Source: Escherichia phage 4MG. Taken from it: a stretch of DNA of 64,000 nt. Where the stretch lies: sequence record NC_022968.1. One strand, given 5' to 3'. Below, piece after piece: positions 61,038-61,111 of this stretch (positions are counted from its first letter, which is position 1; each line of letters opens with the position of its first letter). The position numbers were made by a program, and so were the translations under genes. The notes under the pieces are model-generated. The model ran no database searches, had not been told where the DNA came from, and saw only the letters and a list, made by a program, of their open reading frames with translations.

Positions 61038-61111
61038 TGGCGGGAACTTCCTGACTCGAACAGGAGACAACCGCAGCACAAGCGGCCATTATGCCCCTTA
61101 ACTAAATTCCC
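61038..61111 (-). tRNA. tRNA with anticodon GUG (His-like), atypical C37 and G73
   Basis: 74 nt canonical cloverleaf; anticodon loop TTGTGCT; discriminator G; no G-1. Confidence 0.5.

Follow-up and report, generated by a model that had tools for sequence, protein, structure and literature searches.

A putative tRNA-His with a remodelled elbow and an orphan GUG tRNA in the tRNA array of Escherichia phage 4MG

Within the 64,000 nt of Escherichia phage 4MG analysed here (sequence record NC_022968.1; hereafter the window), a tRNA array carries two genes that both present a GUG anticodon, one at 61988..62063 and the other at 61038..61111. The locus raises the question of which of the two, if not both, serves as tRNA-His. 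The initial annotation found each of the genes atypical in a different way and proposed that one may be the functional tRNA-His and the other a decoy, a regulator or a pseudogene. Comparison with related phage and metagenomic loci points to a split of this general kind. It is probable that 61988..62063 is a working tRNA-His, and that 61038..61111 is a separate, sporadically distributed cassette gene, an orphan tRNA of non-His identity. In the following, the former is referred to as the putative tRNA-His and the latter as the orphan; all positions are those of the window.

The putative tRNA-His has the sequence GUGGCCU-AA-GCAU-UUAUCAGAUG-AUGU-UCAAC-CUGUGAC-GUUGA-GGAA-GUGGG-AGCGAUA-CCCAC-AGGUCAC-C-CCA. 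Its minimum free energy (MFE) structure is a complete cloverleaf with a 7-bp acceptor stem (GUGGCCU/AGGUCAC) and anticodon and T stems of 5 bp each. The anticodon loop, CUGUGAC, is 7 nt long and places GUG at positions 34–36, followed by A37, and the 3′ end consists of C73 and an encoded CCA. The elbow departs from convention: the T-loop is AGCGAUA, the D-loop (UUAUCAGAUG) lacks GG and holds a single G, and C56, A58 and that one G are the only conserved elbow nucleotides left. The MFE cloverleaf agrees with what was initially described for this gene, namely GUG, C73, A37, the T-loop AGCGATA and a D-loop without GG. ARAGORN makes no call here, and the Rfam family RF00005 gave no match even at E<=10 in the 93-nt stretch searched; the D- and T-loop sequence, not the fold, is responsible for both failures. 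Folded together with its leader (61980..62096), the gene has z=-3.4. No G-1 is encoded, the base at -1 being C. Alternative acceptor registers that would give a G-1:C73 pair in either GUG gene were considered and rejected, as they entail a shorter T stem or a CCC end.

Homologs of the putative tRNA-His were found by BLAST in 62 phage records. The Seunavirus and Mydovirus phages that bear them infect Klebsiella, Salmonella, Cronobacter, Proteus, Raoultella, Enterobacter and E. coli, and in most of the 62 records the gene is unannotated or is overlapped only by a coding sequence; the remodelled elbow is the reason that gene finders and about 40 GenBank records have missed it. More distant homologs occur in the T5-like phages Pectobacterium My1 and Vibrio phi 3 and in the T4-like phages Cronobacter S13 and LPCS28, with those of LPCS28 and phi 3 annotated as tRNA-His(gtg). 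A scan of IMG/VR with the pattern GATGATGTTCNNNNTGTGAC returned 48 loci, of which 7 are true homologs and the remainder chance matches in coding DNA. Two homologs besides those in the phage records, L039 and L046, come from IMG/VR. ARAGORN calls tRNA-His in all six homologs outside the Vequintavirinae (My1, S13, LPCS28, phi 3, L039 and L046).

A covariance model built from these six homologs, R1, matches the putative tRNA-His over model positions 1–77 with 88.3 bits (E=1.3e-22), and the next-best tRNA in the window reaches 42 bits. Across 11 distinct homolog sequences, 99.1 % of the cloverleaf cells are paired, and double changes have occurred in 11 of its 21 pairs. These values were not reached by any of 500 shuffles; in slid controls, pairing was 33–49 %. 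Invariant in the 11 sequences are UGUGAC at positions 33–38 (loop YUGUGAC), C73 and CCA, and the -1 base is T or C in every one. The acceptor pairs G1-C72, U2-A71 and G3-C70 are likewise invariant in the family and are the same three as in E. coli tRNA-His, which the 4MG gene also resembles in G4, C73, GUG and A37. With the tRNA-His genes of LPCS28, S13, phi 3 and My1 it shares the GUGG... acceptor, the A8-A9-GCAUUUA D-arm, the YUGUGAC loop, the GGAA variable loop, the C73-CCA end and a pyrimidine at -1. The gene is 95–100 % identical to its counterparts in Cronobacter phage vB_CsaM_GAP31 (GAP31), PVP-SE1 and Escherichia phage vB_EcoM_LNA4 (LNA4), and the flanking leader is 67–76 % identical to those of GAP31 and PVP-SE1. 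In a BLAST search for a host origin, neither GUG tRNA gene was matched in 5,426 E. coli genomes. Taken together, the alignments show the predicted gene to descend from a lineage of tRNA-His that T4-like, T5-like and rV5-like phages have exchanged.

Some of the oddities of the gene belong to the whole family. With numbering read from the sequences, the core of all members has A8 with U14, where U8 with A14 is usual, and U15 with A48; additionally, the variable loop is 4 nt long and no residue lies between the D stem and the anticodon stem. The elbow differs between lineages. T-loops of S13, LPCS28, phi 3 and L039 read UUCGAUU or UUCAAUU, and that of L046 reads CUCGAUU, with GG in the D-loop of all of them. 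The Vequintavirinae alleles, in contrast, have a T-loop (A/C)GCGAUA and a D-loop that is one nucleotide shorter and holds a single G, so that S13, LPCS28 and phi 3 are detected by ARAGORN whereas 4MG is not. My1, with the T-loop AUCGUUA and the D-loop GG kept, looks intermediate. The alleles compared show an elbow remodelling (U54-U55 to A/C-G, with loss of one D-loop G) that is specific to Seunavirus and Mydovirus. In a canonical elbow G18 contacts Psi55 and G19 contacts C56. Both changes would hit the partners of one and the same tertiary contact, G18-Psi55, and G19-C56 could still be formed. Covariation of the D-loop with the T-loop within the Vequintavirinae was considered and rejected, since every combination of the variable D-loop base (C, G or A) with position 54 (A or C) is present. 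In GAP31 and FENT2, A31-U39 has been replaced by G-C on the CGCGAUA background; this double change within the Vequintavirinae therefore arose after the T-loop change, and selection continued.

The genes around the slot and the amino acids covered by the arrays bear on the same question. On metagenome contig L067 the order is as in 4MG, with Gln, the same leader hairpin, the slot and Ser(GGA), and the slot is occupied by a canonical tRNA-His of the T5 type. In GAP31 the annotated tRNAs serve 19 amino acids, with only His lacking, and those of PVP-SE1 cover 19 once an Ala tRNA found by ARAGORN is added. As only His is lacking from these sets, the gene of the 61988..62063 family fills the gap; with it, both phages have a tRNA for each of the 20 amino acids. 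The leader hairpin has no U-run and is therefore not like an intrinsic terminator. It is kept in the Seunavirus and Mydovirus relatives examined, where differences in the stem retain pairing (GAGUG../..CACUC versus GAGCA../..UGCUC), and it may be a processing element or an element that positions RNase P.

The orphan has the sequence GGGAAUU-UA-GUUA-AGGGGCA-UAAU-G-GCCGC-UUGUGCU-GCGGU-UGUC-UCCUG-UUCGAGU-CAGGA-AGUUCCC-G-CCA. ARAGORN calls it tRNA-His (GTG), and RF00005 matches it over its full length with 45.6 bits (gathering score 29) and a 7/5 acceptor/T geometry. The Rfam alignment sets GUG at 34–36 of the 7-nt loop UUGUGCU, followed by C37. The encoded CCA is preceded by G73, and the base at -1 is U (T in the DNA). 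The remainder of the body is canonical, with U8, A14, G15/C48, the D-loop AGGGGCA with GG and the T-loop UUCGAGU. ARAGORN and the RF00005 alignment thus agree with the initial description of a canonical cloverleaf with GUG, C37, G73 and no G-1. Two of these traits carry less weight than was first given to them. The lack of G-1 is real but does not distinguish the orphan, as the putative tRNA-His and the tRNA-His of phage T5 are without it too. C37 is atypical but not unique to the orphan; the tRNA-Arg(GCG) of the array also has C37, and a tRNA-Asp of LNA4 and PVP-SE1 has U37.

In most of the 22 other array tRNAs inspected, the discriminator matches the called isotype. According to the identity sets of E. 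coli, this holds for the decisive cases among others: U73 in Cys, A73 with G3-U70 in Ala, and G73 in Gln, Asp, Asn and Trp; the putative tRNA-His has the C73 of the bacterial His rule (PMC9976931). No such match is seen in Glu, with A73, in Ser-UGA, with U73, or in the odd tRNA at 62264..62333. Given this general fit, the G73 of the orphan argues against histidine acceptance, and the orphan is probably not a HisRS (histidyl-tRNA synthetase) substrate. G73 and C37, with G33 in other alleles, are seen on alignment to misfit normal His identity and the geometry expected of an anticodon loop. Another isotype did not emerge either. Loop-masked body similarity across 202 distinct phage tRNAs gave a best non-family value of ~70 % (Val, Asp), which is uninformative, and global pairwise identity within the array was likewise flat. 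The orphan is also not among the 12 matches to R1 listed at E<=10 in the window (default filters).

Other alleles of the orphan carry the loop UGGUGCU, that is G33 plus C37, and are called Thr or Gln by other annotators. G73 and GUGCU are invariant among all alleles. The 4MG allele (hereafter the window allele) differs from the others at 11 positions. Two doubly changed stem pairs still pair (G30-C40 versus U-A, and U6-G67 versus A-U), and the rest of the differences lie mostly in normally variable positions; the chance of such a pairing-preserving pattern is roughly estimated at about 1e-3. These compensatory changes argue against a decaying pseudogene, and the earlier suggestion of a pseudogene is disfavoured for this gene. 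The allele comparison shows what is predicted to be a well-formed tRNA body under structural selection.

Homologs of the orphan are few: four phage records (Klebsiella DP and P8734, Salmonella 41 and 19) and two metagenome contigs (L067 and L070), both of the latter with the G33 allele. Pattern scans of IMG/VR for homologs of the orphan found none. The gene always lies directly 3′ of tRNA-Asp. A C73 tRNA-His accompanies it everywhere, of the remodelled type in DP, P8734, 41, 19 and L070 and of the T5 type in L067; since it co-occurs with either type, the orphan neither replaces nor compensates the remodelled tRNA-His. GAP31, LNA4 and PVP-SE1 lack the orphan, as do most of the 62 records that hold the 61988..62063 family. 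The proposal of one working tRNA-His and one gene of another kind is supported to this extent: the former is conserved, and the latter is rare and has G73.

Local BLAST of 60770..61200 against related loci delimits a cassette of 200 nt. GAP31, the closest relative, lacks exactly 61111..60912 and matches the flanks only. The slot, between tRNA-Asp and tRNA-Pro, is hypervariable: LNA4 matches from 61045 downstream, keeping the downstream 184 nt, and has another tRNA (GUC, loop CUGUCUA) where 4MG has tRNA-Asp and the orphan. The 184-nt spacer from the orphan to tRNA-Pro is itself strongly structured (MFE -55.6 kcal/mol, z=-3.4) and contains no open reading frame (ORF). It is 95 % conserved in LNA4 and weakly matched (22–30 %) in GAP31 and PVP-SE1.

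A parallel is found in phage T5, whose array holds RNA1, RNA2 and RNA3 (NC_005859), non-standard tRNA-shaped genes of unknown function. Like the orphan, which adjoins an Asn–Asp pair, RNA3 is located between tRNA-Asn and tRNA-Asp. No sequence homology was detected between RNA1–3 and the orphan, which differs in being a full canonical cloverleaf. For classification, it is best treated as an orphan tRNA with a standing like that of the tRNA-like stable RNAs in the T5 array.

T5 also provides a precedent for the putative tRNA-His. Its tRNA-His (T5t07, NC_005859 30206..30283) is similar in having C73-CCA, GUG, no G-1 (T at -1) and the acceptor GUGGCUA, but it has a canonical D-arm and T-loop and scores 44.5 bits against the family model, half of what the 4MG gene reaches. 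The record of the T5 gene describes it as an effective amber suppressor once the anticodon is changed, which together with the missing G-1 speaks for a working tRNA-His in 4MG. The putative tRNA-His would be cut from the polycistronic array transcript and charged by the host HisRS via C73 and GUG without a templated G-1, as must hold for the T5 tRNA-His, and the charged tRNA would read CAY codons. The pyrimidine kept at -1, or less efficient charging of an abundant tRNA, are possible routes to charging.

Several points weigh against a working tRNA-His beside a non-His orphan. For an elongator tRNA of the cytoplasmic type, it is very unusual to have G55, no T54 and just one D-loop G, and the elbow changes could impair interactions with RNase P, the CCA-enzyme or the ribosome. 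The note on amber suppression in the T5 record is silent on the amino acid inserted. In bacteria, His identity lies in G-1, C73 and the anticodon GUG; the 5′ phosphate at -1 is critical, and HisRS of the E. coli type is strongly dependent on G-1 and that phosphate (PMC9976931). Neither GUG gene has a genome-encoded G-1 and neither, in this respect, agrees with E. coli tRNA-His, from which the orphan departs further by G73 and C37. There are systems in which tRNA-His is also without a -1 residue, namely alpha-proteobacteria, some protists and C. elegans mitochondria (PMC9976931), as well as phage tRNA-His of 8/4 geometry (PMC5389517). However, these have A73 or U73 and a HisRS that is co-evolved or tolerant, unlike the 4MG gene, which keeps C73 and the 7/5 acceptor/T geometry in an enterobacterial host with a G-1-dependent HisRS. 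As to the orphan, C37 could be tolerated beside a strong G36:C pair, a wobble of U-1 with G73 could conceivably mimic the G-1:C73 pair, and the window allele has U33, so that it is without an escape change of the colicin E5 type.

What the orphan does instead may be approached through the other deviant anticodon loops. Among the 202 distinct tRNAs in the collected loci, 9 calls have a pyrimidine at 37 and 11 are without U33, a few of these being doubtful ARAGORN folds. Leaving aside one T5 call, itself doubtful, they all come from arrays of the Vequintavirinae type, and the three alleles of the orphan are among them. The tRNA-Arg(GCG) of the 4MG array has the loop CUGCGCA with C37, as well as U1-A72 and G73. 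Other tRNAs with aberrant loops occupy the equivalent slot in PVP-SE1 (L002 5509..5584, AAGAUUC) and BIS47 (L050 5383..5457), which suggests that this position is a second slot for orphan tRNAs. The sole tRNA-Asp(GUC) called by ARAGORN in the collected arrays of LNA4 (L017 1055..1131) and PVP-SE1 (L002 2431..2507) has the loop CUGUCUA, with U37. The tRNA-Ile(GAU) of 4MG has the loop CCGAUAA, with C33 in place of U33, and C33 is also found in Asn and Lys tRNAs of related arrays. Clear cases of a pyrimidine at 37 have G36 or C36; where the first codon pair is strong, the stacking lost with purine-37 would be easiest to tolerate.

Escape from host tRNases through an altered anticodon loop has been proposed for phage tRNAs and, for some of them, demonstrated (PMC10264068, PMC11464382, PMC11555353). 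Colicin E5 absolutely requires Y33-G34-U35, and a change of U33 to a purine strongly diminishes cleavage of GUN loops (PMC1635277). Retron Eco2 restricts Vequintavirinae and has tRNA-His among its substrates (PMC12916289); the Eco2 paper was the sole relevant result of a full-text literature search, which found no description of a remodelled phage tRNA-His. The 4MG array resembles the published sets of proposed tRNase evaders (PMC10264068; T5 tRNA-Lys and PARIS, PMC11464382; T5 tRNA-Tyr and a retron, PMC11555353) in that several of its tRNAs, the orphan included, depart from the norm at loop positions 32, 33, 37 or 38. The published tRNAs keep U33, purine-37 and the cognate identity set, whereas the orphan breaks invariant positions and has a discriminator that misfits its anticodon. 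The orphan would act as an uncleavable variant or a decoy against host tRNA-targeting nucleases. This is the likeliest role that can be put forward for it, though with low confidence; the window allele has U33. A decoy or regulator role, as first suggested, is possible on this analysis.

A more far-reaching version is doubtful. In it, the remodelled tRNA-His translates His codons despite lacking three near-universal features, G-1, G18-Psi55 and T54-A58, and its remodelling was selected for hiding the tRNA from a modification enzyme or an immune nuclease of the host that is directed at tRNA; the orphan, tRNA-Arg(GCG), tRNA-Asp and the tRNA with a 6-nt loop serve as uncleavable substitutes or decoys for nucleases that act on GUN or CGN; and a mitochondrion-like elbow operates on a bacterial ribosome in Seunavirus and Mydovirus.

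Less likely still is that the orphan is a neutral passenger, recently duplicated or transferred, that has lost its function and is on the way out. A patchy distribution, the breaking of normally invariant positions (R37 in every allele, U33 in the other alleles) and the lack of a clear isotype affinity, its nearest non-family body being so distant, would all suit such a history. Against this, both doubly changed stem pairs have remained paired among the allele differences, a pattern that chance would rarely produce, the nucleotides of the tertiary core are intact and GUGCU has not varied.

That both genes are His tRNAs is improbable to a slightly greater degree. The orphan would then be a back-up isodecoder, with U-1 left in place by RNase P and paired to G73 as a mirror image of G-1:C73, and with a C37/G33 loop that resists a GUN nuclease, for example of the colicin E5 type. 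T at -1 in all three allele contexts, together with the invariant G73, makes an eighth pair, U-G, possible; colicin E5 absolutely requires YGU and hardly cleaves when position 33 is a purine (PMC1635277), and known defence nucleases of E. coli have tRNA-His as one of their targets (PMC12916289). T at -1 is, however, common in the AT-rich spacers of the array and may mean nothing, the window allele has U33, and acceptance of U-1/G73 by HisRS is purely an assumption of this account.

There is little to favour a reversal of roles, in which the orphan works as tRNA-His and 61988..62063 is a conserved tRNA-like relic or a non-translational RNA. It is true that ARAGORN and Rfam recognize the orphan only, and that the orphan combines the D-loop GG and the T-loop UUCGAGU with GUG at 34–36. 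Yet it has G73 where C73 is expected, C37, and G33 in other alleles, and it is missing from GAP31, LNA4, PVP-SE1 and most of the 62 records, whereas in the 61988..62063 family neither YUGUGAC nor C73 varies across three phage families.

Finally, it is very improbable that the anticodon of the orphan is mis-registered and that the gene is a tRNA-Thr in which the first U of the loop serves as U33, with UGU here, GGU in its relatives and G as purine 37: the one position at which the loops of the alleles differ (U versus G) would in that case be the wobble position of two Thr anticodons, and the GenBank record of phage DP does annotate its homolog as tRNA-Thr, but this register needs C31-G39 to be opened or a 1+3+3 loop, Rfam places GUG at 34–36 with high posterior probability, the ThrRS determinant C2-G71 (PMC9976931) is absent, and the array already holds a tRNA-Thr(UGU) at 63750..63824.

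The array in which the putative tRNA-His and the orphan lie comprises roughly 29 tRNA genes, all on one strand (Table 1). It is 93.9 % identical to that of GAP31 and 95 % identical to that of LNA4, both of which belong to the genus Seunavirus of the Vequintavirinae; the window accordingly stems from a Seunavirus-like phage, an rV5/PVP-SE1-like myovirus of enterobacteria. The array is a mosaic, with some genes 97–100 % identical to those of GAP31, PVP-SE1 and LNA4 and others replaced outright.

Several further elements of the array are unusual. One tRNA-shaped gene has a 6-nt anticodon loop, UCGUCA, which ARAGORN reads as 'GU', and does not encode CCA; it scores 38 bits with Rfam, its GAP31 counterpart is 100 % identical and carries the annotation tRNA-OTHER pseudogene, and LNA4 lacks it. 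ARAGORN missed two more genes. One, with 50.5 bits in Rfam, is a tRNA-Lys(UUU) whose D-loop is greatly enlarged; the other resembles tRNA-Gly(UCC), has an odd D-arm and, with 27.2 bits in Rfam, stays under the gathering score. An unannotated element of ~105 nt ends in ...CCCGCCA and contains a T-arm-like hairpin, UGAGG-UGCAAAC-CCUCA. GAP31 and LNA4 carry copies with 100 % identity. The fold of the element is not significant (z=-0.3), and it may be a tRNA-like RNA or a tRNA that bears an insert. A 107-nt tRNA-like RNA has a 7-bp stem of the acceptor type, a T-arm GGUGG-UUAGAUU-CCACC, three internal hairpins and an ...UCCA end; its fold has z=-3.4, with 0 of 200 shuffles as stable, and it resembles the 'tRNA-like stable RNAs' of T5.

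Two conserved small ORFs, both of unknown function, lie inside the array. Immediately downstream of the terminator-like hairpin, a 474-aa ORF with an N-terminal GG...DLDLY motif has a weak PHROG match to 'nucleotidyltransferase' (E=2.6e-4) and no match by sequence in Pfam or PDB. It may encode an enzyme that modifies tRNA ends.

Table 1. Coordinates and strands of the features described in the 4MG window
Feature	Position	Strand	Basis or remark
tRNA array	60179..63824	(-)	23 genes called by ARAGORN plus at least 6 further tRNA or tRNA-like elements (Rfam adds matches)
Putative tRNA-His(GUG), remodelled elbow	61988..62063	(-)	MFE cloverleaf, family model, covariation, synteny
5′ leader hairpin	62064..62095	(-)	11-bp stem, 4-nt loop; ends 3–4 nt before G1 of tRNA-His
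Orphan accessory tRNA, GUG at 34–36	61038..61111	(-)	ARAGORN, Rfam
Cassette, 200 nt	60912..61111	(-)	Orphan tRNA plus 126 nt downstream; local BLAST
Orphan-to-tRNA-Pro spacer	60854..61037	(-)
Unannotated element	61341..61450	(-)
tRNA-Lys(UUU)	61459..61545	(-)
Conserved small ORF, 51 aa	61720..61875	(-)	phrog_17355
tRNA-shaped gene, 6-nt anticodon loop	62264..62333	(-)
tRNA-Gly(UCC)-like gene	62425..62498	(-)
tRNA-Ile(GAU)	62505..62581	(-)
Conserved small ORF, 121 aa	62678..63043	(-)	phrog_3330
Internal promoter-like pair	63062..63124		Two strong sigma-70-like promoters preceding the 121-aa ORF
tRNA-like RNA, 107 nt	63555..63669	(-)
tRNA-Arg(GCG)	63670..63743	(-)
Terminator-like hairpin	60115..60132		Just downstream of the tRNA array
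ORF, 474 aa	58640..60064	(-)

The putative tRNA-His is a case in which standard tRNA finders fail on a tRNA that is supported by covariation. If it is charged and used, enterobacterial translation tolerates a tRNA-His without G-1 and without the canonical contacts between the D- and T-loops, which, if true, bears on HisRS identity and on the recognition of the elbow by RNase P and the CCA-enzyme. The deviations found across the array are concentrated at loop positions 33 and 37, and cassettes are exchanged at conserved CCA-spacer junctions. The array is a natural test set for the idea that host defences directed at tRNA shape the tRNAs of phages.

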